A DNA stretch of 60,516 nt, counting the filler, from Hausera hauseri (taxonomy: Eukaryota): NCBI GenBank assembly GCA_046269625.1. It is 10 parts of 10 records of this genome, joined end to end, with 100 filler letters (N's around TTAATTAATTAA, not from the genome) between each part and the next. Parts side by side here need not be neighbours in the genome. Positions count along the whole stretch, not along the records: positions 50,243 to 60,516 come from JBJURY010211077.1; 9 more parts are not named here. One strand, written 5' to 3'. The first letter of the stretch is position 1. Each line of letters starts with the position of its first letter. A model generated the notes under the pieces. The model was given only the letters and a program-made list of their open reading frames with translations. It was not told the origin of the DNA and searched no databases. Position numbers and translations under genes: made by a program. This document shows, one piece after another, positions 20,401-60,516 of the stretch.

Positions 20401-20638
20401 TCATATAACTTCTCAGTGAATATTGTTCTTTCCCGGATATATCTACTTGTTCGCTAATTTGTTTGAGCCTTTCTAAGTTACACTGTAATATTTCTGGATC
20501 ATAACGTTTGTTTCTTATTTTTCTTAACTCCTCGGCGTTTTTCACGAATGTCGGACTTTCCACTTCTGAAAATCGAAATCATCTGTATTCGTCATTTCTT
20601 CTTCACTATTGGGAAGTGGGCAGATCTCGTTAATTTCA

Positions 20639-22199: not shown

Positions 22200-22470
22200 A
22201 TTTTTACATTTTCTTTTACAAAGTGATATCAAACTCCCCCCCACACACACAGTGCACCATCGATTTTAACTCTTCGAAAGTGTGCTGCACTATTCGAATT
22301 CGGTGCAATTTTTCGAAAAATTAAAATGTGTATTTTGAATTTTATACAACATGGTATAGGTGGGACAAATTTTTCAAAATTGTTTTTTCGAACTTGAATA
22401 TCTTTTTACCCAGTTTTCGAATAATTTTGGTCTCTATCGAATGGTATAGGTTACAGGAACACGCGACCTT
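22200..22470. repeat. Non-coding insertion, probable short interspersed/MITE-like repeat
   Basis: Interrupts two retroelement pieces; rich in TTCGAA/GTGCAC palindromic words, duplicated ATGGTATAGGT; loosely resembles 45750-45911. Confidence 0.35.
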
Positions 22471-22479
22471 AGGAACCAA

Positions 22480-28924: not shown

Positions 28925-28993
28925 ATTAAAATCTTGGGTTCTTGGAAAATTTATTAGGTTTTGTGCAGGATTTTGGGGAACCCACTCATGCTC

Positions 28994-32220: not shown

Positions 32221-35105
32221 NNNNNNNNNNNNNNNNNNNNNNNNNNNNNNNNNNNNNNNNNNNNTTAATTAATTAANNNNNNNNNNNNNNNNNNNNNNNN
32301 NNNNNNNNNNNNNNNNNNNNAAAGAGTGCACGAATTGTGGTACCAAAGATTGCTTCAGCAGGTGCACAACCGGTGGTAGTAAACGGCGTGTTGCGCCATT
32401 CGAGTAAAACCAAAGGGAAGATGGTTGTCGAAATCTTATGAGTTTCGGCCAGGATTTTTAACGAGATCTTGAGAGTGCGACGAAAGCGTTCCAATAAGCC
32501 GTTCGACTGGGAATGGTATGGAGTTGTGTGTATGTGGTTTATGTCCAGTCAATTAACTAAAGACTTGAACAGGATCGATTCAAATTGGGGACCTTGGTCT
32601 GTAATTATATAGCGAGGTAAACCGAATCGGCTAATCCAAATCCTTATGAATGCATCAGCAATCTATATTGATGGAGCGCAAAGGGACGGCATCATGCCAA
32701 CGAGTTACGCGGTCCATCATTGTTAAGATAAATTGGTGGCCGTTATCGGAAGGTAATGGGCCAACGATATCTATGTGGACTGACTCAAAGCGGGATGTAC
32801 ATGGGAAATAGAATAATGGTGGTTTAAGATATTTAGCTACTTTGAACTTTTGGAAAGCTACGCATTGCATAACCAAGCTCTGTATATCAGACCTCATTGA
32901 TGTCCATGTTACATGACGTTTCAGAAGGCGGAATGTAGCCTTGGAACCTGGGTGGTGCAAAGAATGAACATGTTGAAATGCAGTTTGTTGGAGAGGAGGT
33001 GCCAAAATTAGCAAATGTTATCCAGGTGTCAAAGTATCCATGGCTATTCCATCGATGATTTGCACGGATTTGTACTGTTTCAAAATTTTATGAGAAGGTG
33101 GATTTTGGATTAACTGGTACTTTGAGAAAATTGGTGTGACGCTAATTGCTCCAACTGACTATAATAAGAAATCGCCTATTGAATTGTCTGTGCCAGAAAT
33201 ATGGCAAATTTTAAAGCTGAATGTTGACAGATATGAGATATGGCGTTCTTGTCGCAGTGATGGTTGTTTCATGTTCATTACGTAAACGAAAGGTTTGTGA
33301 TCCGTTTGGATAGTGAAGGAACGAGCGATAAGCAAATGTGAAAATGTTTCAGAGCTAAAACAATGGACAGGAATTCTCTATCGAAGGTAGAATAACGGCG
33401 TTCTTGTGGCGGCAGCTTGGGTGAAAAGAATTCTAGCGGCTCGTTTATACCTTAAGATATTTGATGAAGAACCGCTCCTACTGCTGTAGTTGATGCGTCG
33501 GTTGTTAAAATGAAGTCAGCATCAGGTTTTGGGTAGGCTAAAATTTCCACTGTTTTTAGCTTGTCGCGGAGTTCATCGAACTGGTTAATAAGTTCTGGTG
33601 TCCAATATATGAGCTTTTTCTTCGGCCCTGCTCCTAGTTGAGCGAAAGGAGCAGTTAACTGGCTACAGTGTGATACATATTTATGGAAAAATGTAATGTC
33701 CCAAGGAAATTACGCATGTCAGTAGTGGTTTGGGTAGTTCGATGTTTCGTTACTGATGAATTCTATCAGGCTGTGGACTGTGACCGTCAGGTTTGATGAC
33801 GTGGCCAAGGAAATTGACCTTTTTCCGGAAGAAAAAACACTTAGAAAAGTTTACTTGCAAATTGTAGTTGTGTGAACGTTGGAAAACTAGTCTGAGATGT
33901 TCTTCATGTTGTTTGGGCGATGCCGATGCGACTAGTATGTCATCAATGTACGGAAATACAAATGACAAGCCTGAAAGAACTGAATCAATGTGCCGTTGAA
34001 AAGTTTGTGCTGCGTTCTTTGAACCGAACGACATGAATGCGTATTCGAACAGACCAAAAGGTGTTATAATGGCCGTTTTTTGAATGTCTTTGGGTTCTAC
34101 CGATATTTGGTGGTAGGCTTTTTCAAGATCTATGATTGAATAAATCGTAGTTTTGTGCAAAGAATGTAATATATCCTTAATCAAAGGTAGAGGATACGCA
34201 TCCATGGTAGAGACGTTATTAAGTTAGCGATAAACGCCGCATGGGTGGAATGTGCCATCTTTTTTGGGACGACGTGGAGTGGTGATTCCCACGGTGATTT
34301 TGACCCTTTTATTATTCCAGCTTGCTCGAGTACAGAGAATTCTGCTTGGACTGCCTGTCGACGGCGTGGTGAAAGTGGGCGGAGTTTTTGCCTAACGGGC
34401 CTAGGATTTTCTGTGATAATATGATTAAATGTCGTGTTAGCCTGTCGAAATGCTGGGTTTTTTTATTGTATGAAAACAGGACTTGGTTAAATATTGTTGC
34501 ATTTCTTGACTAAGCGTAGTAAAGGCTGTTGTTGTCGCGGCAGTGGCTTCATTGGACTTAGTGTCAGGAATGGTAGAAATCGGACCGCCTAAATTGGACT
34601 TCAACTGAAACGTAGGATTGTTTACATTCGAATTAATAAGGTTTTTATTCAAATTGGTTGATGGTTTATTTAATATTGATTTTATAGCCGAAATAGGCTG
34701 CATGATCAGTTCGTTATTTGTGGAGGTGGGCTTTGTTAAACTTATTTTAGTAATCCGACGTTGTCTACAATCTACAAGGAGATTGTAGAAAGATAAGAAA
34801 TCAGACCCAAGTATTGGAGATTGTGTGTTGGCAACGATGAAAGTCCAATTAAAAATGTCGGAGAATAGTGGTAAAGTGAATGAAACCTTGAACGTGCCGA
34901 AAATGCGTAATGCTTGGCCGTTAGCTGTGTATAATTTAATGTTAGATGGTGAGATGGATGGTGTTTTGATGCATGGTGGTAATAAAAAAACAGCTGCCCC
35001 AGAATCAATGAGGAAGTTGATTGATTGATTGGATTCGGAAGCTAACGAGGCTTTTAATGTGAAAACGGCATTAGTACGGCTGTAATGATGAAAACGTTTG
35101 CTTGT

Positions 35106-35147
35106 GCCAGCATGTGCCGAAACATCTGGCGGATTTATGAGTTTTTT
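35106..35147 (-). promoter_or_regulatory. -1 ribosomal frameshift signal (A AAA AAC plus hairpin) between gag and pol
   Basis: Slippery heptamer just before gag TAA; downstream GCCAG-ATGT...ACAT-G-CTGGC stem; -1 frame is open into FLIDSGA. Confidence 0.75.
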
Positions 35148-36100
35148 TGAGGCACAGTATTTATGTTGTTGGAAGGGGTAGGTTGTGATGAATTAGATCG
35201 GATAACAAAAGTGCAACTTGTAACGCAGTTCTGTGCTTTAGAATTGAATTTATTATGGTACATGCAGATAATATGGGATCGTTTTAAATTGGGAACATAA
35301 AATCTGCAACCTAAGCAGCATTTAGTAGAGTTATTTTTGAATTTGGTATGGTAGTAACACACCATTGATCGTGTAGGTGACCTCGCATGCCTTGAATTTT
35401 GAGATGATGTGCGGCTATGGTTCGCATCAAAACGATTTTGTCTAGGCATGATTAAGGCTTCGATTTTTGACGTGAGTGCAGAAATTGCTTGTTGTATGTT
35501 GTCGTTTGCGGCACGTAAAGAATTTATCTGTGAGTTCAGATTAGCTATGTCGCTAGCTTGTTTAGTTGTTGGTACTTGTAACGAAGCGGCTACTAATGGA
35601 GCTGTACGTACCTGTAATATCTCGTGGCTTTGTCAGACAGTTGTGCTAGTTTTTGTAGTGACGATGTGTTCTCTACTATGGTCAACAGTGCACATATATC
35701 TCTAGGTAAATGCTTCAGAAAATATTTGTGTAGTAAATCGGCGTTATTTGCTTGATTAACGCCAAGAGTACTCAACTGAGTTAGTGAGGTTTGAAGAAAT
35801 TCTGAGGGTTTCAATGTGCCTATGGTGTTGCCGTTAAAATATTTGTAGGTAATGTTATCCAGAGATGATTCCGTGATTTTTATAATCGAGTTAAAAGTGT
35901 TTTGTATGGGTCACTGCTTTGGAAAATTTCCTACAAGTTTGGAAGCTGCGACTTAATGTTGTAAGGCAAAAGTATAAGCAAGCTGTTTGCTTTAAGAAAA
36001 GAATCGACAATATTATTCGACCTCAACTAAGCCGCATGAAAGTCCAACCACGTCTGGCTGGAATGTTGCTTGTCAACAAAGTATTTTGCGCAAGGTAGAT
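35135..36100 (-). pseudogene. gag: gag with two tandem CHCC motifs
   Basis: KPSEFL, FLKHLP, CYYHTKFKNNSTKCCLGC and CMYHNKFNSKAQNCVTSC. Confidence 0.8.
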
Positions 36101-36939: not shown

Positions 36940-38340
36940 TTAATTAGCGCCAATATCCAAAACTAAAGGACTAGTAAATGAAGATCTGGTGGCTGCCGAT
37001 CGAGCTCCATGCATTAATGTCTTTTTCAGACCATTTAACAGATAATTGCGAATATCATTCGTCAACTCGGGAATAAATCGGCTTACTAATTTCAATGAGT
37101 AAATCAGTGGGAAATTAAGTCCCGCTTGAATCAGCGGTTCAATCATTACTTTAATGTCATCTCGAACTTTCTGTTGTCAACCAGTTGCAATAAGACCAAT
37201 AACGATATAAATCGACAATTCTAACAATGGCTGACGCTCTTTCGCATCTTTATTTGGTAGGTTCGACTTGATCAGATCAACCGCTCTTGGGAAATATTCG
37301 GTTTTTTCGAACTCAACTGGAATAATGTGTGCGATAATTCCAGTACTTAAATATGACGATGGTTTTTCACGATCTTTACGAATACACAAGTTCAGGAATT
37401 CCAATGAACGGTTCCTTTGAAATTCAAACGTTGAACTTGTATCCAGTGCAATAAATCTCGGTAATGCTTGAATTACAAGTTGGATTATATGGGGTTGTTT
37501 GAAATCAAAATTTTGGATAGCAATTTGCCATATCTCACTTAATTTCTCCTGCAACAATTTTCGACATAAATGAGACTGTTTGATTTTCGGACGATGCTGC
37601 AAAATGTGTTCCTCAATTTTACTATACGGCCATTCCATTCGACATGCAGCTATTGCTGCTGGAATTCCACACGGTAGAGTTGAATTTGTAAGTTGATCCA
37701 TCATCATGCCAATCATTTCCTCTATTCGTAATCGATTGCTTTCCATTTCGTCATTACATAATTTCAATAATTCATTTAACAGTAACAATGTCCCATGAAT
37801 CCAGGCATCCGGATTCAATTTACGAATGTTTATATGGAAATGAACTACATTTTCATCGGTATGATTACGGAGAATTTCTGCCAGACATTTACTGTACAAT
37901 TCGTGTGGCCAATCGCCCGATTCCATGGCATTGGTATCCGGTCCAACGTAATTTGCCGGCGGTTTACTGCTATGCTTCTGATTATGACTGCTGCCTAAAC
38001 TGTTCATTAGTCGTCCACTGCTTACATTAGGAGATGGACCATCAAACGATGTTTTTTGTTTACGTCGACTAATGCCTTCTCTTGTTGCTGTTACAGAAAA
38101 TGATGACGCTAAAGCTACAGCATATACTTTACGGACGCTACCCTGTTTGTCTCGAATCCGCATCAGAAAATATGTGATGACATGTGTTGCATACTGAAAT
38201 AAGTGTCGACGAATGCAGAGCAATTTCTTTCAGTGTTAATGCGGCGTATATTCGCTGAGCTTCCGACTTTGTATCGTCAACAACGACACTACGAGCCTCT
38301 TTAATTTTCGACTCAACTCGTTCGGTGGGCAGTATCAAAT
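36940..38340 (-). pseudogene. TOR: TOR kinase N-terminal HEAT-repeat fragment
   Basis: AALTLKEIA, RDKQGSVR, IHGTLLLLNELL, LPRFIA, IEPLIQAGL...IPELTNDI...LMH match mTOR N-terminus; frameshift ~38190, in-frame TGA 37177, no kinase domain. Confidence 0.8.
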
Positions 38341-40053
38341 TAAATTTCGCAACAAAACGTGCCTGCAAAGCGCTAATTTGAATGTCATTTGTGATAGATG
38401 TATTTTGTATTTGGTTAGATACTTTGACAAATTTACTGTGGAAAAATATGACGTCTGAATCCAAAACACAACCCAAACTTTTCAGAACAGCTCTTCTATC
38501 GGCCAATTTGTTCTTTTCAGATAATTTGAGACTCCAAAAACATTTTATCTTTTAAGTCATAAATGACGAAACTTGAAATCTTTTGCAGTTTTCAATTTCA
38601 CATCTTTAGCTTGTCCAATAATTGGTTGATGGCTGTTGTCAGAATTAAAGTAATTGGAGTGTTCAAATAACCGAAGGAATATGGTATGATTTCCAAATAC
38701 CCATTGAAATATGCTGCATATTTCACGTAGTGTCGTCCAAAATGAATTCCTAAGATTATGCTACCTTTACTATATTTTTCTTTGGCCAGCATATAACTTT
38801 TACAGCATATAAATACCATGAAATGAAATCCCTTTATAAAATTATGAGAGTGAATGATATTAAACGCGTTATAAAATTTGTTTTGTACTGCACTAATATA
38901 ATGGATCAGTAAAATACGACAACGTTCAGTATTAAATACGTGCCAGAAGCAATCAAATGGTAAATTTACCCACCTTATTTTCCCTTCGAGAGTCCAAAAA
39001 TCTGCAGTGTTCTGGATGAACGAATGAATGAGTGTCATCACGATGGTCGATCTTGGCGTATATTTACCATACGACTGTATCTTACACCATTGTCGATTTG
39101 TCCCCGACGTACAACAAATCTCATCAGTATAGTAAAATGTTTTGTAATTAAAATCAAACACACCTCAGAATGCCATTCCCGGCCACTATTCGTCGGGTCA
39201 GTGGGCACCGCGTAAAATTTAGATCCATAATACAAAGTATGCTTCATTTAACGGCAATATCTTGAAACTCAAAATGTAGAAATATAAATAATGATCAAAT
39301 AGGAGACAATTTCGTGAAGCAAAATCGAAAGTAATAATTTTTACATTTATAGCTGTACATGAAAACCTTTGGCATATTTAAACAAGCTAATATTGTTTTT
39401 ATGATGAATTCGGGCAAATCCGCCAAATGACGGATCTGGCACTTGTTTGTTTCGTGAAGGGATTTTTTCTCGGGTAAAGAAATATATTTAATAAATCACA
39501 TCATGCATATATAGAGCTAAAACACGTTCATGATTAAAAACTGATCACAGCTATTTGAATTTCCTGAATAATTACTTGTCGCGATTTAAGTCTATTAAAT
39601 TGTGATTTTGTACGATGAAATTCCTTTACATCAATGAATGAAACAAATTTTTCTTTGATAAACAAGGAAATTTGTTCTCCTCCACTTTACTGAGTAACGT
39701 TTGAAATAAATCCACTAAATACATTCCTCGCTTCCAAACTGTCAGTAGTAACTGAGGCAGACCTGGCTTTTTCTTCATCAATATCTTCGTCGGAATAATT
39801 ACTGGCCGATACTTTCACATCGCCAATGCCTTTCTCATCACCTTTAACATTACAATTATCATCCAGATAAATTCGCTTCTTTTGGACAAAAATTGACTAT
39901 CTGACGAATTGCTTTTATCCGAGCTCATTGGCTCATTGATGGAATCAACTGTCATTTCAGTGTAATATAATCCCATTTTTTCATGCTAGTTCAATTGCCG
40001 TTTTGTACTTTTGTGATTTAAATTTAACAGAAAATTTCGAACTGAAATGTTCT

Positions 40054-41370: not shown

Positions 41371-41889
41371 CTGCAAATGAAAATTTCGATATGTTGCAAT
41401 TTTCAATCATTTAATGTCTGATTTCAACTTAAGAATGAGGAATATAATGCGTAACACAAATTAAATTGCTTTGAATTTCACTTAGATACTTTAAGTTTAA
41501 TACGATTTAAACTTTAATATAACGAAAATTAAAAAGATAAGAATTAAAAGTAAAATATTAGCATTTGGCTTTAGAAAGTCACAATAATTTATNNNNNNNN
41601 NNNNNNNNNNNNNNNNNNNNNNNNNNNNNNNNNNNNTTAATTAATTAANNNNNNNNNNNNNNNNNNNNNNNNNNNNNNNNNNNNNNNNNNNNTTGTTACG
41701 AAATAAATGTGTTATGAAAACTAGTTGGTTTTTATAAGACATAAAGCATATAATGAAAAAACATGTATTAAATAACATTTACATAATAATCGTATCATCA
41801 CTGTCACTGTCACTGTCAGGTAAAAATTCATGTAGGAGTTTTATCAGGCGCCCTACCCATTTTACATAGAGGCACTGGTCTTCAGCATC

Positions 41890-42093
41890 CTAGACTACCA
41901 CAAACTCACACTTTTTTCTGCATAGCGGACAAGACATTTTACTGCTTAGCCATTTCTTCAGACAGCCTATGCAGAAAGTATATGTATCGCATGCTACCAA
42001 TCTCATTGTTTCATCCGACATCTGCTCCCAACAAATCGGACAAGTTTTCAAAATTTTGAAATAATGCAAGATTAATACAAGTACATGTCGCAC
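41890..42093 (-). CDS. Small RING-finger ORF downstream of pPolB (probably decayed)
   Basis: CPICWE...ACDTYTFCIGCLKKWLSSKMSCPLCRK; His ligand replaced by Tyr. Confidence 0.75.
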   Translation of the reverse strand: MRHVLVLILHYFKILKTCPICWEQMSDETMRLVACDTYTFCIGCLKKWLSSKMSCPLCRKKCEFVVV

Positions 42094-42263
42094 TGTGTTG
42101 ATTACTCAAAATTTATTGATTTTATTGATCTAAGTTTTACTTGGTCTTATCCTATATAGTAGTCACTTAGTTTTACTTGGCCTTATCCTATGTCCCATAC
42201 TACTTGATAAAGAAGACAACACGATATTCCTATACGACATTAATTAACAATGAAAAACAATAT

Positions 42264-45200
42264 TTACAATGACACATGTCCTTGAGGTAGTGTATTGATT
42301 CCATCGCTCAGCATCTGCCTCTTGTCATCCATGCAATCTAGGTTTTTCTTATGCAGTGTTATTGTTTGGATGTTATGATCCATAGATAGGATCCATTTCA
42401 TTTCTGAAATGATGAGTCTGCTTCTGCAGAACTGTCACATAGTTCTGAAAACTGATCTTCTTGTCTAAGGTAGTCCTTTGAACTCCCTGGCTCTCTTTTT
42501 GATCTGCCTACATACGTCTAGGACATATATTTTATACCTGAGAGCCACAAATCTCGAGATGATTGATCCATTCATCTCGTCTTTGAATTTCCCAAGGACC
42601 TTTTGTTGGCAGTTGAGTAGTTTGGGTGTTCCTTTGGATAAACCGAGGTATCCATGTGTTGAGCCAATTGGGCAAAGTCCTCAAAAATATCCTCTGTATG
42701 AATCTGATATATAAAACTATCAGTATCCATATACATCAGTTGCAAGGACTTGAACTTGGAAACCATGATGCCGTAGTAGAAATTATAAATCAGGGTCTTT
42801 TACAGGTCGTGGATTGCCATACCCACATATATTGGATTCTTGAATACCATTGCTGTTTTCAGCATATAGATGCCTGCCAAGTTTTCCGTATATATTTTGC
42901 TGCTATGGAAGTTAAGCTTGGCAATAAGCTTCTTTGCCCGCTTCTAGTCACATACTAGCTCAATGTTGAACCTGTTGCGGATATTCTCCATGGACTTGCC
43001 AAAGACCGAGTTGTTGTAAAGATTAAACGGGTCCTTCTCAAAGTCCCTCTTCGCATTTGTCCTTAGCTTCGTATTGAGATCTATGTATGACTGCAGCCAC
43101 ATGGACTGGTTGAACTGCAGAGCTCTATAAATCTTGGTAATACGAAGTCCATATCTAACAGCTTGCTGTAAACTAATGTAGTAAACTACATACCTCTCCC
43201 TATTATCCAGATGACAAAGCAGCTTTCTCTACTTTCCATGGGGCGGAAGCCTCCTCACAGGGAGAAAAGGCAGATGTTGATGCCTTGCGTGGATGGAAGC
43301 CGGATATTCCATATCTACCTCCAGTATGTATCCCGTATCCCCAGTGGGACCTAGGTCTAATATAGTAATGATTTCAGGATTTTCGACCTATTTGAAGTTA
43401 CCATATGGCAATGGGGCATTCAGGTATAAAGCAGCACGTACATCTTGAGGTAAATATCACTGTATTGCCTTAATGTACGGCATTGAAATGCCTTCCAGAC
43501 GTTCTGAGCATGCTGGTAGTCAGCATCACTGATATCGCAATCAGAGAGGATATTGCAAAAGTCGTTCCTGGCTGGCAACGAGGTCTCATCCAGTGTTTCC
43601 CACGAAGTTATGTAGTCATAGGGAAACTCACCTTTCCTCTTGACTAGGTCAAATGCAGTGAGGAAAAACCGCTTCGTCTCCTTGAGTTCTTCTGTTGGGA
43701 GGTTCTTCACTAAACTGTCCAGTAAAGACGACATGAAACGAAAGCTGTCTATGAAGCGAAGACTAATTTTACCAACATGCTTAGTGAAGGTGATATATTT
43801 CTCCTTACTGTTTGGGATCACGTCTATATTACCATCAATGGTGCCTAATTCTCGGACTATAAAATAGGAATCACAACCACTGAGATTATGAAACACTACA
43901 AGTACATATGTGCATGTTTTTCAGAGAAGACTGCAGTTGTTGCATGCTGCTCCTCAATATGCATCTGGCAAATGGCAGTGATCCTTGACTTTCCAATTTT
44001 CCTTGATTAAGGACTTTTTACACAAGTAACATGCTGTTGCCTTAAGCCATTCTTCTTCTTGTTTCCACGACATGCTTATATTATCCTTGTGCTGCTGAAG
44101 CATGTTTTCAAGCTTATGAGCCATGTCTTCAAGTCTTTTCATGAAATGTGCTGCTGCACCTGGACCTCTGAATAGAAATGGTTCTCTGTCCAGTCCTTTG
44201 GCATACATGATATTAGTATGCCGTTGTGCTGCTATGTTGAAGACTGGGAGTGCATCTGTCAACTGGCCGAAGAATAGCTTCAATTCGCAACAGATAACTA
44301 TTGGGACCTTGATCTTTTTCTCGAACTCCTTGAATTCAATGTAGCCCTCTTTGGGAAATTCTGACCTTACACAGTAATTGTTGTTGCGGTACATCTTGTG
44401 CTCTAAAAGCTTGTCCACTGCTCAATCACCACTAAAATGACACAGACATCGCTTACATATTTCTATTTGTCCATGATGATTCGTAATTTGGGATCTGACT
44501 AGACGCTTAAAATTCCTTATCCAAACATAATTTTCCTTTTCTCCATCGTCTAGCAAAAGCAGATCCCTATGATTTTCCAATTCATTTTCACATATCTGCA
44601 GGGGATAGAATTTATCTTCCTCATCCAATCCAAAGATGTTGGTTGATATGTTGTTGATTCGACTGAACTTCTTAATTTCATCTAAGGATGGAGGGAATGT
44701 GATACATTAGAAGTCATAATTGTGCTGTACATCCATATATTGCCAAACTTGTAAAGCATTATGTTGATCCGGTACGAGTTTTGATAGAATGGCATACATG
44801 AAACACATGTTGACATTATTATGGACATTGATACATGCTTTTTTATTAGCGATCCAATCAGGGAGTTGAATATATGATCTACCCCGCATGGGAGAGAATC
44901 TTTACACATACACAAGCAATCTCTTGATGGTTGCCAGAGTCCATCCGCTCTTCTTATTTTGGCTCTCATCGGCTTTACGGATCAGCTTTGCATACTCTTC
45001 ACGCAGGCATTCTACTATATTGGTGGCTTCAAAAATTGGTCTATTTCTGTTTTTGAAGGCCCTTTTGGACTCTTCGCCATCAACATTGACGTATGTGGCC
45101 TCAAGTTTCATATTAGCCTTAATGACCTTGAGCTTAGTTATGTTGTCCTGGAGAATCCCTATTTTTTCGTCCTCTATGTATTCCAGGAACGCCTTGATGG

Positions 45201-45750
45201 TTGTTTGACCAGTTGCATCAATGACATATTTGCGGCATTTCCTCTTTAATGCTGCAGCATTAACGGGCCCTTGTCTTTGACTCTTTGATGGAGCCGGTGC
45301 ATCTGATGCGCGTGATGCGCGTCATGGGTCTGTTGCGCGTTTTAATCCTGCATCTGGCTGTACTGCTATTGCAGGCTGTGCAACTGGCTTATGTTCATTA
45401 AAGATGATCTTCTTTCACTTTGATGTGAAGTCAGTTAAATGATGTTTGTGATCTTTATAAAACTGTATGTACTCTCTACCACATACAGTCTCACATCCTG
45501 GACAGATATAAAAAATGATCCTATTAAATTTGTGTCTATAATAGCTCCTCATGGTATTGTGCCAATTTTGAGGCTTGTGGGTTTCACATGTGCAATACAT
45601 ATATGAACTCCACAATATATTTTCCTTTGGCATCAAAGTCGTTATTGGCATATTGGTACTGAATATTTGTTTTTATCGACTTGGTGAAGGAAATCAAGTG
45701 CTGTTTATGGACATTGTAAGGCTTCATAATTTGGTTTGGCAAACTAGTAG
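42264..45750 (-). mobile_element. pPolB element copy 3 (decayed), including Cys/His-rich N-terminal domain
   Basis: Collinear with copy 2; KVKDHCH, FIDSFRFM, RKGEFPYDY, YMDTDS, C-terminal DDKR...NTLPQGH stop at 42264. Confidence 0.9.
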
Positions 45751-46099
45751 GGAGAAAATGTGTCTTCGGTCACACCCGGGGGGGGGGGAGGCGTAATCGA
45801 TAAATCGATTTTGCACGTGCCCATCGATAGTGCACACTGTGCACTATAGATCCAGAAAGTGCCTAACAATGGTGCCGCTAGGCACAGTTGTTAAGGGCAA
45901 TTTTGCACTTTNNNNNNNNNNNNNNNNNNNNNNNNNNNNNNNNNNNNNNNNNNNNTTAATTAATTAANNNNNNNNNNNNNNNNNNNNNNNNNNNNNNNNN
46001 NNNNNNNNNNNATTTTATTTTAAGTATTTAAATTTTATTAGTAAATAATATTTTTTCTCTTTTGTAAGGTGGAACCTTACAATGAGCTTGAAATATTTC

Positions 46100-46700
46100 A
46101 AACAAATTTGGTCGGGGAATGTTTATATCATCATATCGACTCAAAAATAAGTTTACGAATGAATAGAGCGCATGCTGCACGCACTCGACTGCTGTGATTT
46201 ACCTTCAGTGTTTTGATGACAGTTGTAACAGCCTCGTAAATAACTGAACTCGTGCCCAAATCCAACTGACAAAATAGTTCGACCAACTTTGCCATGGATG
46301 ATGCACGAACTAATTCTTTAGTGTCTCGCAGACCGACAAGCAGTGATGGCATAACGCAGTCACGATACTGCACAGCAGTGGCACCCAGATTACGGATTAT
46401 TTTCATATAGGTTTCACTGAGATTCGACCAGTTTTCGACCGAATCTTCGTTCATATCACCCAACATCGATAAGTTGTGAATGGCCCTCAGGTAGACATAC
46501 GAGTCTGCATGGAACAACAAATTACAGCAAATTTGATAAATCGTCTGTGTGTTGTCAATAGCTGCCTTGTTCTTTTCGCGGTTTCGGTAATTGTTCAGCG
46601 TAACTGCTGGAGCTGACAAATTGCAAATCATTAAAAACAGATATTGATCGATGTTTCTCTGCAATTATTGTAGAGTTGAGAATTATATCAACATCAATGG
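46100..46700 (-). pseudogene. TANGO6: TANGO6/RTP1-like C-terminal fragment
   Basis: HADSYVYLRAI, RNLGATAVQYRD, GLRDTKELVRASSMAKLVEL, RVRAA; intactness uncertain. Confidence 0.65.
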
Positions 46701-48577: not shown

Positions 48578-49490
48578 TTACAACGGTCTCGGTCGTTTCA
48601 ATCCATTTGGATAACGTTTCCGAAACCTCTCAACAACTTCCGGATCGACTAACTTAGTACCTTCCAACTGGTTGCCTAAAGTAATCCTAAAGCCAATAAG
48701 AAAAACGTCTAATCCAAAGTATTACCAATTAGGCTGTAGATTATGCGGTCTTCCAAATAATTCTAATTTCCTAGTTCCCGGAGACAGCCGTTCAATAATT
48801 CCATAAATTTCATCAGGTTTATGACTAGTTTCCCGGACCTCAGAAACAATGACATCGCAATCAAGACCTCTGTTCATTCCCTGAGTAATGCTAATCAATG
48901 CAAATAACAGGAAATGGCCACTTTAGGATTCCCCTTAACACCAACAAGACAATGCTCCTTGCCATGGTTCAGCCAGTGGCCTGTTCGACCAGTTCTAATG
49001 ATTCGCTGCAGTTGGTTTGTCTTGACCCAGATTATCTCTTCAAGGCAATCATAACCCCACAGACGCAGACATTCGCGGCCTTGTTCCATGGCTCTAGACA
49101 GATAAATGTACATTGCCGTAAAAGGTTCATTTCTTACACACCTGCCAGTCACCCACAAGAAAATATATCCTTCAATCTGCAGACAGGGAATATCAAGTCG
49201 GCGCATTTCTTCGTCACTCATCGTACCGTATGGTAATTCCATATGAATATCCCATGGTGGATCGGCCATAATTACCGCAAATTTACCAAGAATGGACATG
49301 TCCAATTCTCGAATGTCACATTCGATCCACTTAAAATTCCCATTGAATACATAGAGATGGCCATTGCCTTTACCTGAGGCTGATATAAAGTGGTTGTGTC
49401 AACGGGCTGACGACTAACAGAGTTTGAGTAGTTCTCAATAAGGGTGTCCGATTGTGGCATGTCAGGTTGATTGATTTCATAATGAACATA
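48578..49490 (-). CDS. METTL3: m6A methyltransferase catalytic subunit; exons 49490-49374, 49329-49142, 49093-48922, 48880-48726, 48686-48578 (5' exons unresolved)
   Basis: [71 protein letters not shown]; GT-AG introns of 44, 48, 41, 39 nt restore the frame. Confidence 0.95.
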
Positions 49491-50745
49491 CTGAAATAAT
49501 AGATGTATAAAAATGACCAGATATGTAGAGAATTCGTGCACCGGAAATTCATAACATAAGGGAAAGAAGACACTATCAGTCTGCAAAATTTAAAAACGAA
49601 ACATTATGCTTGCCAGAAATTCGAATTTTTAAAGTATGCTTCAAATGCACTCAAAACCGGTCTGAATCTGAACGAAAATGTGCATTGTAAAAACTTTTGC
49701 TTAATAAACCATATATGATTCAAAACAACTCAATTAATTTATTTACCAAAATGCACGTCTGTAAAATGTAAAAGAAAAGAAATAAAATTGACGCAATTCA
49801 CAAATGATTTTGTTACAAAAATATGACAGTCATAACACTTATATTGCCAGATATATAGAATTTATCAAAGTACAACTAGATCAATGAAATTGAGTTATTT
49901 AAAATTTTTCCCTCCAAAATTACGTTTTTAAAGTTATAGGTTCACAATTTCCAGAATAAATAAACAGTTCATCATTTTATGTTGTATTACGAAAATAAAC
50001 TATGCTTATATAGTTAATTATTGTTGGCCGCGGACGCATCCACGCCGTTCACGTCATCGCCAGCCGGTGTAGGGTTGGAAAATACCCGCCCTCTGGTATG
50101 TCTGCTGAATCAGAGTTGGATTGATTGAGATTACTCATTGAANNNNNNNNNNNNNNNNNNNNNNNNNNNNNNNNNNNNNNNNNNNNTTAATTAATTAANN
50201 NNNNNNNNNNNNNNNNNNNNNNNNNNNNNNNNNNNNNNNNNNAAATCGACTATAATGGAGACCTAATCAGAGAATTGAGACGAATGTCTATGCCGACCTT
50301 TAGTACGGATAATGGGGAACTGAACGAACTGATCAAAGACTTAATACGAATAGTAACCTACTCTAGCCTCGGCAGTGATGTATTAGATGAGAAAGAGAAA
50401 GCCATATCGAACGCCTCAAAGGCCATGAAAGGTCTTCGATGTAAATTATCCAGAAGTACTTTAAGCGATAAAATAATAATCGAGAAGATTATGGTAGAAA
50501 ATGCCGTAGAAGAATTACGAAAAGCATTATTATATCTGGTCATTAAAACTAACCCAAACCGGGAAAATGAATTCAACCAAGCTACTAAATTGGCGAGAAG
50601 GGCTGCTAGGAAGCTACCCCGAGAAGTGAATTGCTCTAAGCTATTCGAAAAAGAGAAAGAACATCAGAGTGGATTCTTCTTCGATAACAATAGATTCGGA
50701 GATCTGCTATTAAATGTAACTGGAAATCGCAGAGGAAATGAATTG

Positions 50746-52700
50746 AACTGGCTAATAAACTTTCTTACCATGATGATGTTGATAAGACAAATGGGCGCAG
50801 TTACAGTATATTACTGCGGCAAATTTAGATTGGGCCAAAAATATTCGTTAATGGACTTGGAAATGTACAAAGATGCGAGGCTCCACAGATTTGAAACAAA
50901 AGAAAAAAGTTATGTATTATACTAACAACGCGAACTACTTACTTTGGACGTAGTAGAATGTATGTTGCGGCGATCTCGCAGCATTTCCCATTGTGGACTG
51001 GTACATAGGCACTCGTCAATAATTAAGCCAACAACTCCACTAATTCCGATGAATTTGGAGAGACAGCATTGTAAGCAAGCTAGAGATACGGGAAGAATAA
51101 AGTGGGGCGGTATAGAAATGGAAATCCAGCAAGGAAAAATAATCAAAGTGTAGCGGCAAATAATCAAAAATAGCGGCAGGAAGACTAAACTTGCACACCG
51201 GAAATTGCCAATGTGCACAATACAATACTGGAAAAGAATTAGAGTCAAATATCGTAGTAGTAGACTTTTATGAAACTGAAATGAGCGCACAGAAAGCGAT
51301 GTTCCATAGCGTTACTAAACTTTACACTGAGAACCATAAGTGCCACATACAGGATAACACATGCCCGTTTCGAAGTTCTGTTGTAATTTGACAGCCTCCA
51401 TCCAAGACCTCCAATTGCAATTTTATAAGAATTAAAGAACTTAAATTCAATGAGACGACCGGAAAACAATACATAAGTAACACGGAAACTAATTTTAAAA
51501 CGCGAGAAGATGTAGCCGAACAATCCACGCCTACTATACTAATTTCTGATACTCTTGGATTAAAATTTGTGAAGAAGGATGTACTCATAAGAAGTGACGT
51601 TATAATGTACGCCACCAATTATGAAGCATTTTCGTCGCAGAGACGGAAATAAATGCCAGAACGTTTAAGCTCGAGACTCAAGATATTCGAATTGATGATT
51701 ATCTAAAGAACAGAGACGACTATTTCTATTATAAAGGACAACCCGGAATAGACAAGTTGTATCATAAAATTATAATGAACGACTGTAAGCTAGACTTGGA
51801 AGTTATAAGGACTAAGCTTGCTTTAATATATGCCAATGCCGAATTAGCTTCACCAATAATTCCAATAAAGGAAGGTGTTTTTGGACGAGTAACCGAAGAA
51901 GTCTTATTGACCTACGAATGTGAAAAGAAGGACGTACCTATTAATGTGGAAGAAAAGAGGTGTATAAAAGAACTTCCAGTGATATACAAAGACGTACCAA
52001 GATCAGTAACACCAATTACCAGAGTACTATTGACTAACTCCACTCAACAGACAATTCTAAGAGACGGTAAAACCAGTTTAGGCGAGCCGATGTTCAGACG
52101 AAACGAAACCGACTGGGTAAGTTTGCCAAACGGCGGCATCATCGCACCACCTACCAAGTTGACAGGAACAAACCTGATAAAAGGGATAACCGATGATAAA
52201 TTTTAAGATACAGCTGCGAAGTGTATTTACCGACCAAAAGAAGTAGAGGCGTTCAGACAATTTCTCGCTTTTCTCAGTCAACGCACACATGAATTGAACA
52301 AAGCAATGCATGCAATATTGGAGTATTCGCGCTACGAGCCAAATGGGAGTCATTACTTGGCGTCGGCTATTACAAGAATGTAACAACAGAAATATTGTAC
52401 AAAATCTGGGGAAGATTCCTGATATTCGGACAAACCGCGTTAGGATTTCTGGCAATATATTTTTGTATTCAATTAGTGAAAGCCATAATTCAAGCACTCA
52501 TAAATGGATACGAGATATTTACTTTGACAGGATTTTCGTGCAAAATTTCAACAGCTATTATTACACTCTTCGGCAAATTCTTAAAGGCTTATGAAGAGAG
52601 TAAATGGAAAACAGATGTAGAGAGACATGTTGGCTACCACAATCGAAAACGGAAAAGACACATATTCGATTACAAAAAAAAGATTCGTAGATAGTAAAAC
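50746..52700 (+). pseudogene. env: Chuvirus-like class III fusion glycoprotein upstream of pol
   Basis: Signal-like segment then VTVYYC, YSL, ECML...HCG...HSS, C...TG, GRVTEEVLLTYEC, CIKELPV, PITRVL, and TM region WGRFLIFGQTALGFLAIYFCIQLVKAII..LINGY. Confidence 0.72.
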
Positions 52701-53124
52701 ACGAAGAAATAATTCTGATGATGACGAGCCTAAAGGAGCAGATGTCACCTCCAGACCAAACTGGCACAAAAATTACTCTGTTATCAAACTACCATTATTA
52801 ATATTGCCGCCAACGGCATCTATACATAAAGATTGAAAGAAACAATCTGCAAGTTCGTGTCAGACAGATGTTTATCGGAAGCCGTTTAACCTAGAGGATC
52901 CTTACGAAGGAACCAAACGTTACGGGATATTGCGTAAGATTTACGAAACGGAAAGAAAGACTATTCCACATTGCCGCTCAACGGTCGACGATCACGGTAT
53001 AATCTATTCACCTAGAGTACCTAAAGCAAACGAAATGCAATCGATATTTGCTTGAAACTATAAGACATGAAATTTCCGAAACCAAGATGATCAGCCACCG
53101 GCTAGAAATTAAAGAGTAGAAAAT

Positions 53125-56100
53125 ATGAACGGTATAAATAACGAACTATACCCAATCGGAGAACTGAGACAGATGGTCGAACAGCCATCCAGAACTACTG
53201 AAGTTACCATAAACGGTTATAAGGTGTCCACGGTACGACACCCGAGAACAGCATCAAGTTATTACTGTACGGTAATCGAAGGAAGGCCTTTCGCGAAAAT
53301 TCAATTAGAGGATTGGGATGTATACGCTTTAATAGACACGAGATCCAAAATATCACTGATAAAATACGATTTGATACCGCAGTTCCTACGGAAACAATTA
53401 TATCCACCTCCCTCAACAGACCCAAGCAGTATTGGAGCTTTTGGACAGTCATCGAAAAGTAAATTCCGTTGGAAACTGGAAATGTGCATAATGGGACAAT
53501 CTTCCCGCCATGATTTCTCAGTAATGCAGCAATTAACGGATGATGTAGTATTAGGATGTGATTTATTGAGACAACTACCCAATATAGCAATCGACTTCAA
53601 TGCAGTCAAGTTAATAGAACTTGGTCCAATAAAAGAAGTCAAAACCACCAAGGATAGAAAGTTCGGAGAAGTGTGGATTTCAGTAGATGAAATCATACCA
53701 CCCAGAACTGAAGTACACATTTATGCCCAAATACGTCAAGATGACGACAAACCGGTATATTTCGAGCCAAAAGAATCGCTTAATCCGAACATTGTACTTA
53801 GCAACATTTTGACCAGAGTATCGAGGGGTCGCGTGCCGATCAGAGCTGCAAATAACGCACCAACCCCAGTTAGACTATATGCCAATACCACTTTGGAACA
53901 CACGTATAGAGTATCATCAATTACGATCGAAGAGAAACCATATAAGGGTGCCGAATTTCCGCCCCACGTTAAGACTAAATTGTCACCGGAATCACACTGC
54001 CGATTTTACGACTTACTTCGTCGTTATAGATCAATTATCACGAAAGATGAAGAAGATATTGGCCGAGCCAAAACCTTAAGACTCACGATTCCACTTAAGA
54101 AAAAGCCTGGATCAAAGGACGAAATAGATTTGGAACATCAAAAGATGTCTAAATGTTACCCTCCTTCACACTTGTTAAGGCCAGAAATAACTAAGGAAGT
54201 TGAACGGATGTTAAAGGCCGACATAATTAGACCTAGCTACAGATCTTGGTATTCACCGATACTCATTGTTAAGAAAAAAAGTATCACTAAGCACCGATTT
54301 TGTATCGATTACCGAGCATTAAATACACTTATGATGAAGGATTCCTTTCCGTTTCCATCGGTAAAGGAAGATTTGGACAGACTCTCTAGAGCCAAATGGT
54401 TCACCACTCTCGATTTACAATCTGGATACTGTCAAGTAAAGATAGAAGAAGAAGATCGTTACAAAACGGCCTTTAAGACACACAATAGTATATACGAATT
54501 TAATGTTATGACATTTGGAATAACGACCGGACCCGCCATCTTTACTCGCATGATGAACAAGATGCTGATGGGATTAGAACAAGTACTCTCCTATTTAGAC
54601 GACGTTATGATTGCGTCAGAAACCGAAGAGGATTATTTAAAAGACATTGAAGGTACACTTATGGGACTGGAGCAAGCTGGATTGAAACTGAATCCCAAGA
54701 AATGTAAATGGGCTCAAAACACTGTATCGTACCTTGAACATAGTTGGAGAAGGTGGGTCGAAGCCGGACGAATCATTACTAAGTAAGATATCAGATTGTA
54801 TGGAACCTCAGAATCAGAAAGAATTAAGAAACTGGTTAAGGTTGTGTGGATACTATGCTAATTACGTACCAGATAATGCGAAGATAAACGCACCTTTGTA
54901 TGGTTTACTGAAGAAGGGAATCAAATAAAAATGGACCAATGTCGAACAAAAGGCTTTTGATGAAATGTAGAAGATTCTAACTAGTGAACTTGTTCTAAGA
55001 TATCCCGACTTCAACTTACCGTTCATAATCAAAACAGACGCCAGTAAGAAAGGTATCGGATATGAACTGGCTCAGAAGCGAGAAGACGAGGAACTGGAAC
55101 ACCCAGTAGCATATGGAGGGCTTTCCTTAAAAAAAGCAGAGAAGAACTATTCTGTTACGAAGCTAGAAACGCTAGCAGTGAAGGGGGCACTACAACATTT
55201 TAACGTGTACGTTTATGGACAAAAGATTATAATCGTTACTGACATAAGGCAGTTACGACATTAAAGCGTAGGGCAAATAATCCAACTGTAGACTTAACAG
55301 ATGGATTGAAGAGATTTCACGTTATAACGTCGAATTCCAATACAATCTCGGAAATAAGCACATCGATGCCGATGCATTATCGAGAATCAAAACTAAAACA
55401 AGTGCAGTTACAGTAATGAGGAAAGCACACCTCGAAGATTTAGTGGAAAGAAAACGGACTCTTATGCTGGATAAGGCAATGAAAATTTTTATCGAAAAGA
55501 GAAAAGACAAGGTTATACAACAAATTGTCGAGTTCGTTAATACCAATAAAACACCAAAGGGTCATCAGCTACGGAAACATCTACGACGATATGGTCACAA
55601 ATACTGTTTCACCGGAGATTCAAATCAAGAAAATGTATTGTACTATGAACAAAAAGGACAAAAATTAGTCGTCATACCGAAAGGATTACGAGCAAACGTG
55701 CTCATGGCCGAACATGACTCATACTTAGCCGGACACATGTGGAAAAAGACAGAAAAGAATATTAAATAAATACTATTGGCCGAGCGTTTACATTGACGTA
55801 AGGAATTGAGTGAATGCTTGTGAAGTGTGTGCGACCAAGCAGAGAAAAGTGAAAAACTATGTTGCAGAGCTTACGCCTATCGACGTGCCCGATAGACCAA
55901 TGCAAGCAATGTTTACGGATATTGTAGAACCATTGCCTACGACCCACAAAAATAACAAATACATTTTGACCTGTGTAGACCGATTGACTCATTTCGTCGA
56001 GCTTATAGCGTTATTAGACCAAAAGGCCGAGACCTTGGTAGTCCGGAAAATCATTTTCAGGTACCCACCACCCGAACAAATCTTGACAGTCCAAGGAAGA

Positions 56101-56760
56101 AACTTCACAAGTGAATTGTTTGATAAAATTACCAAAATTTTCGAGATTGAACAACTAACTACTAGAGCTTATCATCCCCAATGTAATGGAATGGTCGAGC
56201 GGATGAACGCGACCGTTGTACGAATCTTATCGACAGTAGTCTCAAAAGACCAGAAAAATTGGGATGAGTTCTTAGAAGGTACACAGTTTGCCATTAATAC
56301 TACTCTACATCTTGCGACAGGATTCACTCCGTTATACATGATGTACGGTAGAGAAGCTGTACTGCCTACAGATCTAGAATTAATTCCCTACACAACGAAA
56401 ACGGAAGATTTAGAACAGAATTTTGTCGAGGTATTGCAACAGAGATTACATAAGTGTTGGGAAATAGCCAAGGAGTTATCTAGAGAATACCAGGAACAAT
56501 TTAAGAAATAATACGACAAGAAGGCTAAGTTACACGACTTAGAATCCAGAAACTGGGTTTACGTACACTATCCAGTAGCAAAGAAAGGCACCTTTCTTAA
56601 GCTCACCAGGACAAGCAGAGGACCTTATGAGGTTACCAAAGTTACGCCAACCACAGTTTATATAAATAAAAACAACAAGGAAGAGGTCATATCGATTCAG
56701 AGAGTAGTTAAAACGGAAATAAAACCAGACAAATGTTATAATTACGTTGGAGCAAAACCG
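53125..56760 (+). pseudogene. pol: gypsy pol: aspartic protease, RT, RNase H, integrase
   Basis: ALIDTRS(DTGS), RFCIDYRALN, LDLQSGY, YLDD, KTDAS, HD...GH/CEVC, YHPQCNGMVER. Confidence 0.95.
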
Positions 56761-56779
56761 ATAATGAAAAGAAAACGTC

Positions 56780-58116
56780 GTCGATAGTGACCAGACCAAT
56801 ATCATATGTGCAAATAGTCCTCGCCTTATCGTTAATCCCATCGTATATACGAAGATGAAATCGATAACTCAAACCCAAAAGTTACAATATGAGGCAAAAC
56901 GAAAGGATATCCAAAATTTTCAATAGCTTAGAGTATATGATATGGAATGGAGCAAACCATGTGCGTGGTTTGAAGCAAGTAAACCCGTTTAGAGCTATGT
57001 AAAATTTCAAATAATATTTGTAACTAGATATGCGATGAGAACATGTGATTTTCCGTACGGACATCACAAAAGATGTTGTGATTTGTATTTTGGACAAGCT
57101 TACGGATACAGATTTCAAATGTTTTATTCTAATCAGTTTGGAGCTCAAGCTTATATAATTACTAGTAATAAGAATGCCCCAACGAAAGGATGCAAACCAA
57201 GCCAAGACGGACGAAATAATCCGAAGCACTGACCCGTTTGAAAGACTCTTAGATAATAATATTATTGGAGATTTACCAGGACCTAAAGAATCAATATACA
57301 CGAATTGAAACTAAAATAGAGCTGCCTGAAGGCAGACAAATATCCGTCCGATTTATACCATTAAATGCTTCGATCCATACTCCGGAGTATTGTTATCTGG
57401 CCAGACGCCGATCTACTACGTGCTGTGTAATACAACTAGGACAGGATTATCAGTTGCAACTTGACTTGTACAATACGTACCCCGGAGAACAAAGCACTTA
57501 TTTACGGGGATATTGTCCTAAAATCGGAATATGGAAACTTCAGTTCCCTACTACAACGCAAAAACCGTCTACAGCTCCAAGTACAACTCTTACTACGGCA
57601 ATTGTCACTTCAGAGGAAGTGCTCAGAAAAGAACTCGAAAACAAACTGGTTAAGATTTTGGCAAAAAGCGATAAAATTCTATTTTTCGTTGAAGAGAGGT
57701 TAAATCAAGATGTCAAAATTAAATGTAGCACCCTGCACACCAACCAAGTCGTGATCTTGAGAAAGAATAGTCAGAAAACTGAATGTATGTCATTACGGCC
57801 GCAACATGACTATATAGTCAGAATCACTGCAAAGGGTAAGAACCCTAAAACGTACACAGTGTGGACTTTAGATATTAAAATTGAAGTAATGCAGCATAAG
57901 AGTTATAGTATCCAAAGTGTGTTCACCACAAATAGTTCCATCAAGGAAAATAATTTACCAATAACAGCTATATTCAGTTTGTCAATTTTCGTTCTTGTCA
58001 CATTAACAGCGATGATTTTTCTAGTTGCCAAAAATTGTAATAAACGCCGTAAAAATCAAAAGGGAGATAAACGGGAAAAGAGGCACGGAGACGGACTTTA
58101 TAATAACATAACCTGA
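56780..58116 (+). pseudogene. Post-integrase FN3-like type I membrane protein, copy C
   Basis: ISYVQIVLALSLI, CDFPYGHHKRCC, LRPQHDYIVRITA, TM ITAIFSLSIFVLVTLTAMIFLVA, tail YNNIT. Confidence 0.8.
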
Positions 58117-58122
58117 CAACTA
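58114..58122 (+). promoter_or_regulatory. Stop-codon readthrough signal TGA-CAA-CTA (copy B: TGA-CAA-TTA at 30265-30257)
   Basis: Matches CAR-YYA leaky-stop context; same position in both copies; downstream frame conserved. Confidence 0.72.
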
Positions 58123-60516
58123 CAGATCGGGTTATCCTATCATCATATAAAGAGAATGTTTTGCTTCAAAACGATGATCTGTCTTAGGATTAACCTTCAT
58201 TTTTATTTCAGCAGAGTAAGCATGGCCGAGAAAACGAAAAATCCAACACTCAGTTCCAGTATTGATATCGACGGTTTCTCACAGTAGCACGTCACTGTCC
58301 TTAAACCACTGTCCAAAAGTCTATACCGACACAATGGGAGAAAACCTGAAAATCCAAAAATATCTAGAGTTCGAAAAGAGAGTAAAATACCAAATGGACT
58401 AAAATGGGGTTTAGAAGAGAATCGACTGGTTCGATTATATGCCATGCGAAATCCAAAGGATGTACGGGATTACCTTTTAAGAGATCTAATTCCATATGAT
58501 CCGACACATCAGCAATTGTACGTACATGTCGCTGATGGTGAAATTCAATACAGGATCGTAGGACAATCCTGGAGTACGCAAAAAGTGAAGCAGTGGAAGT
58601 TTAGTACTTATGAGCTATGTTGCTATAGCCTCGTGAATTATGTTCTGGAATTTAGGATCGCGGACCTCCCGACCAAAATCATGATCGAGATGATGTGGCG
58701 GATCGAGGTAATGAAGCCGCTACCACGTTATTATGTGTACAGAAACGATCGGAAGACGCGATAGAGCAAAATGGAGAGTCCTACAGATTAGTTCCAGACG
58801 GTAGAAAAACCGGAATATTGGCCGTGAACTATGGAGAAAAGGATGACGGATAGTATGTTCCAATCAAGGTCTCTATCAGAAATACTAATGAAGAAAAGAT
58901 CATAAATAAAATAATCGCGCCTCGAGCTAGAATAAAGCACACTTTTCCCGATGTCACAGGAATCATGAAAGTACAGCTCGAAAAGGGAAAGGATTTCTTG
59001 GAGATCCAAGAAGACATAAGCCATTGCTTCTATGGATATATTGTTACCAAATTTCGAGTGCACGAAGCGCTGGATCGACTAGGAATTAGGCAAGAATACA
59101 TAGTCGGAATTCGAGAAATGAGCCGAAATCTAGCAGTTGTGAGCCAAGTAGAAAATACCTTGATGCAGAAAAGAGGTTGCCTGCTTCCTTCCTCAGCATC
59201 CCGTAAATCGTAATTCAAGATGATGCTCGAGGCCATGAATGGCGAACGATTTAAATTTCCTAAACTGATGACAGCAGGTCAAGGGACCAAATTAATAAAA
59301 AATATCTACGACTCGTTACAATGGGACACGTGTGGAAACCCAGAAGCCATATGCAGAACGCAATATCCGACAACAACCCCAAAGTCCTAATGCAGAAATT
59401 ACGAGAAGGGTTTAGTGAATGCCCTAGTTATCGACACATCGAATCCCGAGGACATAAGCAATTTCAAGTAACAGTTCATAATGATCCGTTGGAAGGTCCT
59501 AGCGGCCGACAAAAACCGGCCACCAGTAAATTGGAAAAAGAAACCATCTTAGACAAAACGGACAATTCAAGAAAGAAGAAAACAAAAACTTCCTTCCTGG
59601 AATATACTAGTAAAAAGAGGAGTAAACCTAGTAAAAATCAAATGGACGAAATTAAGCCCGTAGCCGACAGTCTAATTCCAAAGGAACCAACAAATGATTC
59701 GAGGAAAATAACGAACCAACAAGAAACTAAAAAGAATAGCGAAGATCAGTTAAAGATTACCAAAACCGGATCCCTTAAAACGAAAGTCAACGTTCTTCGA
59801 AAGAACTGGGAGAAAGATACCCCGATTATAGTTAAAGAATTCGGCCAAGTGAAAGAATGTAAAAAAATTCTAGTCATGGCCGAGTACAATAGCAAAGGGA
59901 AAATAAAAGAGACTATATTTTACGTGTCTACTGTCCCTAAAAGGATAGTCAGTGGAAATGAATATGACAGAGAAGATACCACCATCGGCAGGTACTTAGC
60001 CCCAATATTTCAGTCGAAAAGCGGTACTAACAGATTGACAGTTCCCGTGGATACCCAAGTTAGAGTTCATTTAAAGATACAATACAAGAAGACTGGAGTA
60101 GCCGATTTGGATAAACAAGAAATAGTCGAATAGGTCCTGGTCGCGGTATCCGACGATCCGAGAAAAAGCTCCATAGACCCCAATCAAAAGAGATTGTATG
60201 AATGCTTGTACCAAGACAAAAAAGGACTGGTATTTGAGAGAATAGAAGTGGACGAAAACCTTGTGGACATTGACGCAGCTGAAAAAGAAGAGTGTCCCGT
60301 TTGTGACGTGGATCTCTATCAAGGATTCGTGGTTGGACAACAAAGATTGCAGTCATAAATATTGTCAATACTGCCTAAAAACGTGGACCCTGAAAAATGG
60401 GATAACGACTTGCCCAGTATGCAGGGCCGAAGCCACCAGGCTAAGATGCTACTCAAATGAAAAAAATAAGAAAATAGTAGAGATACTACCCGAACCGGCT
60501 ACTACGTCCTACCATT
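58117..60516 (+). pseudogene. Accessory ORF(s) and terminal RING finger, copy C
   Basis: IPNGLK, YVHVADGEI, LEFRIA, HCFYGY, VNVLRK, YLAPIFQS, and CPVC...DCSHKYCQYC...CPVCRAEA (60293-60435, one frameshift). Confidence 0.85.

Follow-up and report, generated by a model that had tools for sequence, protein, structure and literature searches.

The closest described systems to the element reported here are the planarian elements Burro and GYPSM1, which are giant gypsy-like long terminal repeat (LTR) retrotransposons (Grohme 2018 and Jurka 2007, as cited in PMC6431247). Burro was described in 2019 as having a Gag-Ubl-BCL2-Env-PR-RT layout in one open reading frame (ORF), with decayed fragments reported in Dugesia japonica (PMC6431247); Burro1 expression is under PIWI control (PMC8532177), and an IAP function of Burro1 in regeneration is cited in PMC13465017. 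Elements of GAG-ENV-POL order whose Env is of the HSV/gB type (herpes simplex virus glycoprotein B) are recorded from Platyhelminthes, Nematoda and Bryozoa, including six from Schmidtea (PMC13524379). These statements, and all those below that cite the same papers, are drawn from selected sections of them. Here, we describe a related locus in a 60,516-nucleotide stretch of DNA from Hausera hauseri (GCA_046269625.1), referred to as the window, which is made up of ten stretches with the same N spacer between each and the next, so that adjacency in the window does not imply adjacency in the genome. The element under study (the main copy) occupies the last of these stretches, 50243-60516, and two other stretches carry diverged copies, A and B. 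It is very probably a decayed gypsy-type, Burro-like LTR retroelement of a probable flatworm, intact relatives of which encode Gag, accessory domains, a class III fusogen and Pol in one frame, with a product predicted to thread the endoplasmic reticulum (ER) membrane.

The glycoprotein and its in-frame signal

The glycoprotein (G) encoded ahead of the protease is, on profile evidence, a predicted class III fusogen of the chuvirus/Monjiviricetes type, and this proposal of the initial annotation holds. Three of the four G pieces of 50752-52600 (with stops read as X) are matched by PF24664 (Monjiviricetes fusion) at E-values of 2.6e-8, 3.8e-14 and 1.2e-13 (32.7, 52 and 50.4 bits against a cut-off of 27), covering model positions 5-128, 284-502 and 530-603, respectively. 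The fourth piece (51200-51625), which is without a Pfam match, was aligned to homologues by tblastn, and the window G is collinear by the same method with P0001, P0002, P0009 and P0025, four of the numbered relatives introduced below. Its reading frame changes at about 51150-51200, 51625-51650 and 52335-52356 and is interrupted by in-frame stops at 50923, 51151 and 52204; the window copy is dead and decayed.

The fold was assessed on P0007, an intact relative which is about 31-35% identical to the window G pieces, and not on the window copy. An AlphaFold 2 (AF2) model of P0007, built from a 38-row alignment, reached a predicted local distance difference test score (pLDDT) of 81. Its best match among viral models was the chuvirus glycoprotein of Tacheng tick virus 4 (E 1.6e-42), and among solved structures it matched herpes simplex virus gB (E 6.7e-14), followed by GP64 and vesiculovirus G, the alignment to gB extending over 414 residues with a Z score of 9.8 and a root mean square deviation of 8.9. 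As modelled, the P0007 glycoprotein is of class III fold, and the structural comparison proposed initially, with chuvirus G and herpes gB, gave matches to both.

In the main copy as well as in copy A, a helical domain, here termed domain X, leads in frame through an internal hydrophobic signal into G. This had been proposed initially and stands for both copies, but the junction motif then quoted, LTLMMIIKHIGA/VTVYDC, is that of copy A only, the main copy having FLTMMMLIRQMGA/VTVYYC. A hydrophobic stretch just ahead of the mature G start was present in all 14 homologues inspected. Domain X of the main copy is 57% identical to its counterpart in copy A and occupies the position of the BCL2-like motif in Burro. 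A BH2-like motif lies ahead of G in 3 of 14 relatives, with weak PF00452 matches in P0007 (E 0.00096) and P0002 (E 0.2). An Atlas search with domain X returned no usable match, and AF2 modelling of the ubiquitin-like segment together with domain X, from a two-sequence alignment, failed to yield a fold (pLDDT 35). A Bcl-2 chain aligned with residues 1-80 of the P0007 model at no more than Z 5.7, and many other helical chains tied with it.

The suggestion that G has no start of its own does not hold strictly, since three ATGs lie inside the signal and others precede it in frame, although initiation at the ATG at 50770 would leave a mere 10 residues ahead of the predicted point of cleavage. Such in-frame ATGs, upstream of and within the signal, would suit an improbable alternative, which accepts the polyprotein frame but has Env produced mostly from a spliced or internally started RNA, membrane threading of a full Gag-Pol product being minor. 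The Env of Drosophila errantiviruses is made from RNA of either kind, and a 1:1:1 ratio of Gag, Env and Pol is, on general knowledge, unusual for retroelements. The absence of any conserved separate start nevertheless argues against this alternative: the region upstream of the signal varies among relatives, and the in-frame signal is retained in all 14 inspected.

The polyprotein in relatives and the junction with the protease

At the family level, the proposed single Gag-X-Env-Pol polyprotein is well founded, as relatives encode G and Pol, and several of them Gag also, in one ORF. A phmmer search with the open piece 51625-52203 gave 72 matches. The subsequent Pfam scan covered 33 distinct proteins, namely 29 of these matches, the cluster members P0073 and P0075, and the further matches P0076 and P0077; 43 others, many of them short fragments, were left out. 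G lies ahead of protease/reverse transcriptase (RT) in one ORF in 15 of the 33 scanned proteins (P0001, P0002, P0003, P0004, P0005, P0008, P0009, P0010, P0015, P0021, P0024, P0073, P0075, P0076 and P0077), which make 13 clusters because P0005/P0073 and P0015/P0075 are cluster mates; the protease match of P0009 is weak and lies at the cut end of the protein. Seventeen others carry PF24664 without Pol, representing stand-alone glycoproteins or fragments, and in the remaining protein, P0064, G follows the integrase, as opposed to its position before the protease in the window. Upstream of G, Pfam identifies Gag markers in P0008, P0015, P0075 and P0024, and Gag-like N-termini were recognized by eye in P0001, P0009 and P0076. 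In the last of these (4,029 amino acids), a beginning that resembles Gag is followed in turn by G, proteases, RT, RNase H and integrase, after which come a further two hydrophobic segments.

A tree built from 39 G segments puts the window piece, on a long branch, within a clade of 11 rows that has 96/98 support; nine of these rows are labelled polyprotein (one of the nine, P0007, shows only an upstream domain and G). Identity to the nearest matches is about 35% for G and up to 50% for RT. A word-indexed search of the G piece against proteins of 402-2000 amino acids had found nothing among 759 candidates, but this search is regarded as weak because phmmer later gave 72 matches. As side observations on these proteins, P0073, P0008, P0002 and P0003 contain ankyrin repeats, C2H2 fingers and tandem aspartyl proteases, both between G and RT and after the integrase; in P0073, Pfam marks up to approximately seven protease stretches. 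P0001 is a eukaryotic retroelement polyprotein under a Flavobacteriaceae metagenome-assembled genome label, which probably reflects the binning of animal DNA with a bacterial genome.

The Pol region of the main copy is matched by models in the order RVP, RVT_1, RT_RNaseH(_2) and rve, characteristic of the gypsy type (Ty3/gypsy, Metaviridae), and its RT is 42-50% identical to those of eight gypsy-type polyprotein relatives. No BEL/Pao-type family was matched in the Pfam scan of Pol, only gypsy-type models, and assignment of the window element to the BEL/Pao Anakin type is contradicted by these models and by the RT identities. Burro has a dUTPase-like domain between protease and RT; the window stretch 53620-53970 is without a Pfam match and aligns to relatives. 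No relative of the Pol ORF was found in viral_contigs.

The junction between G and Pol is less straightforward. The initial annotation had the G tail sharing the frame of the protease ORF; positions 52627 and 53125 do share a frame, interrupted by stops at 52834, 53053, 53068 and 53110, but the transmembrane (TM) helix is encoded in another, which runs from 52344 onward and is closed at 52692. G and the protease are thus not in one frame in the window copy, and their connection needs a fourth frame change, between 52627 and 52695. In a shuffle test, the best of the three frames had four or fewer stops in 2.7% of 10,000 shuffles, and since the third frame has only five stops, the stop count barely singles out the tail frame. 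The spacing from TM helix to protease, approximately 309 codons in the window, compares with 131-391 in 14 homologues.

Other copies of the junction were compared in a run restricted to contigs (X1), in which 15,706 contigs were placed on 50244-56800 and all 30 bins across G and Pol were covered; 40 of the 103 differences from the window are listed. None of the covering contigs carries the stop at 53053 (3-4 contigs) or that at 53068 (4 contigs), the entire covering depth differing from the window at both, and seven loosely fitting contigs differ across 53110. It follows that at least two or three of the tail stops, for which the initial annotation had asked whether they are shared or private, represent decay. 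The TM-to-tail frame break is only partly resolved by the other copies, many of which diverge right at this point, with loose ends at 52693-52702. A hand count from the 40 listed rows places 12 of 38 linker differences at third codon positions, which picks no frame.

The same break bears on a very improbable alternative, whereby, in this subfamily, Gag-X-Env would constitute one ORF and translation would continue into Pol through read-through or a programmed frame change just after the G tail, so that less Pol would be made than Gag and Env. Behind a basic tail, the TM frame is closed by two adjacent stops (52692 and 52695), next to an A-run, and most X1 depth at the break has the same length as the window. 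However, every relative that reaches the protease does so unbroken, about 91% of the covering X1 depth differs from the window at 52692, and many other frame breaks are found inside G and Pol of the window copy. The required shift, moreover, is +1, where the A-run heptamer would suggest -1; a -1 slippery site at the A-run was rejected, being the wrong shift for joining the TM frame to the tail. Scarcely credible is the proposal that G represents a separate chuvirus-derived insertion within an ordinary gypsy element, its shared frames being due to chance. Chuvirus glycoprotein insertions are reported from invertebrate genomes, and homology support for the linker is lacking. Against this, the X-signal-G junction is common to two diverged window copies, the window G groups with polyprotein-embedded Gs and X1 family contigs extend across all 30 bins of G and Pol, while the existence of single-ORF relatives refutes such an insertion in practice.

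Several observations weigh against the reading of the locus as a Burro-like, single-polyprotein element of a flatworm. None of the window copies is continuous, with Gag on one contig and Pol on another, in different subfamily copies, and no LTRs were seen in the window, the element ends falling outside the contigs. The linker (52627-53124) showed no homology to relatives by tblastn. X1 coverage is thin at the informative stops, the 40 listed differences (of 103) include no row for the stop at 52834, and a length difference at the TM-to-tail break is confined to 4 X1 contigs (depth 64.8 of 280). Profile and profile-profile tests of domain X against the Bcl-2-like segments of relatives, made with shallow profiles, were negative, and a second hydrophobic helix after the G TM helix could complicate the predicted topology. 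Finally, the likeness to Burro is one of published layout, and the tree of a host METTL3 exon places it between Macrostomum and Neodermata with no starred support.

Region after the integrase, further copies and host

Downstream of the integrase, a second type I membrane protein is predicted, which is broken in the main copy and open in copy B, where the integrase is in frame with a signal, a cysteine-containing ectodomain and a TM helix. Hydrophobic segments follow the integrase in the same ORF in P0001, P0003, P0021, P0073 and P0076. The ectodomain of this second protein gave Atlas matches to FN3 at 0.80-0.82, which are taken as a lead only, and comparison with the C-termini of six relatives gave a best E of 0.003, with none convincing. 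It is conceivable, though unlikely, that the element is a two-glycoprotein enveloped retroelement, in which one polyprotein crossing the ER membrane four times would yield a class III fusogen and an FN3-like type I protein as its attachment or triggering partner, comparable to herpesvirus gB and its receptor-binding protein. The RING finger of the accessory ORF matches PF13639 and PF00097 in copy B, the remainder of this ORF being without a Pfam match. The ubiquitin-like segment of copy A is common to four relatives; its likeness to ubiquitin was recognized by eye, with no Pfam ubiquitin match. The features of the element are listed in Table 1.

Table 1. Features of the main copy, its diverged copies and the host exon, in window positions
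Feature	Positions	Strand	Basis or remark
Helical domain X	50245-50751	+	In frame with G signal; 5' end cut by contig gap
Internal hydrophobic signal of G	50752-50799	+	Small residue before predicted mature N-terminus; putative cleavage
Predicted chuvirus-like class III glycoprotein ectodomain	50800-52403	+	Three frame changes, in-frame stops
TM helix (about 52410-52490) and second hydrophobic helix (52515-52571)	52404-52571	+	PF24664 530-603, hydropathy
Linker in protease frame	52627-53124	+	Four stops; joined to TM frame only across frame break
Aspartyl protease (about 53281-53577, altered catalytic motif) and RT (about 54268-54735)	53125-54786	+	PF00077, PF00078
RNase H and integrase	54932-56787	+	PF17919, PF17917, PF00665; frame changes and stops
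Second predicted type I membrane protein	56805-58116	+	Signal 56805-56837, TM 57970-58029; broken here
Accessory ORF (~800 codons), C-terminal C3HC4 RING finger	58116-60480	+	Broken; homologous to copy B ORF (27842-30259, minus)
Copy A	16988-21591	minus	Separate contig; 66% nucleotide identity over 1 kb
Copy A Gag zinc knuckle	21287-21328	minus	PF00098
Copy A long helical region	within 16988-21591	minus	Between Gag zinc knuckle and ubiquitin-like segment
Copy A ubiquitin-like segment	about 18184-18405	minus	Profile of 4 relatives, E 1.6e-10
Copy A AT-hook-like motif	17974-17997	minus	Precedes domain X
Copy A signal, then G N-terminus	17413-17460 (signal)	minus	G N-terminus by PF24664
Copy B	27840-32220	minus	Separate contig; 70-78% identity
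Copy B integrase C-terminus and second membrane protein	30263-32089	minus	One open frame; RING ORF next
Further copy fragment	21692-22036	+	Matches copy A helical region upstream of ubiquitin-like segment
Host METTL3 exon	48895-49398	minus	PF05063

A flatworm host is likely from the METTL3 exon, whose nearest flatworm proteins are 77-78% identical to it, compared with 72-75% for most arthropods; the top match carries a beetle label and owes its high score to two matching segments. Elsewhere in the window, an exon of the mTOR HEAT region was recognized by eye as likely (37177-38551, minus), and an exon of an RTP1/TANGO6-like HEAT protein (PF10363) is located at 46131-46664 (minus). Two decayed protein-primed DNA polymerase B genes (PF03175) at 12813-16887 (+) and 41693-45911 (minus) are 76-80% alike, likely Polinton/adintovirus-like, and of higher GC content than their flanks. 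Other decayed gypsy-type pol fragments, with no linked G match, lie at 1400-3540 (+), 32340-35630 (minus) and 24440-26200 (+), and the stretch 22400-27739 contains pieces resembling Gag and Pol, with a possible membrane ORF downstream of them.

Proposed membrane threading and comparison with known elements

For a Burro-like polyprotein of this kind, we infer threading through the membrane and subsequent processing, judging by hydrophobicity and by what is generally known of ER translocation. The cytosol would be the place in which Gag, the ubiquitin-like segment and domain X are made and remain. The internal hydrophobic stretch would then act as a signal sending the G ectodomain into the ER lumen, and this signal would probably be cut by signal peptidase. 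The G TM helix would stop transfer, such that the linker and Pol stay cytosolic, Pol being presumably released by the aspartyl protease of the element itself. After the integrase, the second signal and TM helix would lead to the insertion of a further type I membrane protein. The outcome would probably be an enveloped particle that carries its own fusogen when it buds and passes from cell to cell. If so, a single membrane-threaded precursor would supply capsid, fusogen and polymerase in equal quantities, in the manner of flavi- and alphaviruses.

The nematode NERVs (Sacco et al. 2022) reportedly possess a continuous gag-env-pro-pol ORF, with cargo that differs from that of the window element. 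As cited in PMC13524379, they share with it a metavirus type and an RNA-virus-type glycoprotein between gag and pol, and belong to another host phylum. The BEL/Pao element Anakin (PMC7642597, as cited in PMC13524379) carries a glycoprotein of the same family (Chuviridae type) in a different retrotransposon superfamily. The gB-type errantiviruses surveyed in 2026 share the gag-env-pol order and a gB-like class III Env, and, judged by eye, motifs of the window G and its relatives recur in the Schmidtea Env sequences of the supplement (PMC13524379); a single polyprotein and accessory domains are not discussed in the sections of that paper covered here, in which the term "polyprotein" has 0 occurrences.

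The closest likeness is to Burro, whose layout has been in print since 2019 and comprises one huge ORF, Gag zinc knuckles, a ubiquitin/SUMO-like domain, the order PR-RT-RH-IN and RING cargo, as well as an env which lies in frame between gag and pol and matches mononegavirus-type fusion proteins (PMC6431247). A Gag zinc knuckle, the Pol order and a RING finger recur in the window copies, and the ubiquitin-like segment of copy A is a candidate counterpart of the Burro domain. An env in frame between gag and pol in one ORF is seen in relatives; in the window, domain X and G are in frame in two copies, and the passage from G to Pol is broken in the main copy, with partial support for an open frame from other copies. 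Burro differs in its BIR, MATH, ankyrin and AAA domains, none of which were seen in the window pieces, and in a BCL2-like motif before env, which is not demonstrable for domain X of the window; a second membrane protein after the integrase is, for its part, unmentioned in section 7 of the Burro description (PMC6431247). Burro exceeds 20 kb and has long LTRs, a length beyond what the short contigs of the window could display. To this published element type, the window adds a decayed and divergent member.

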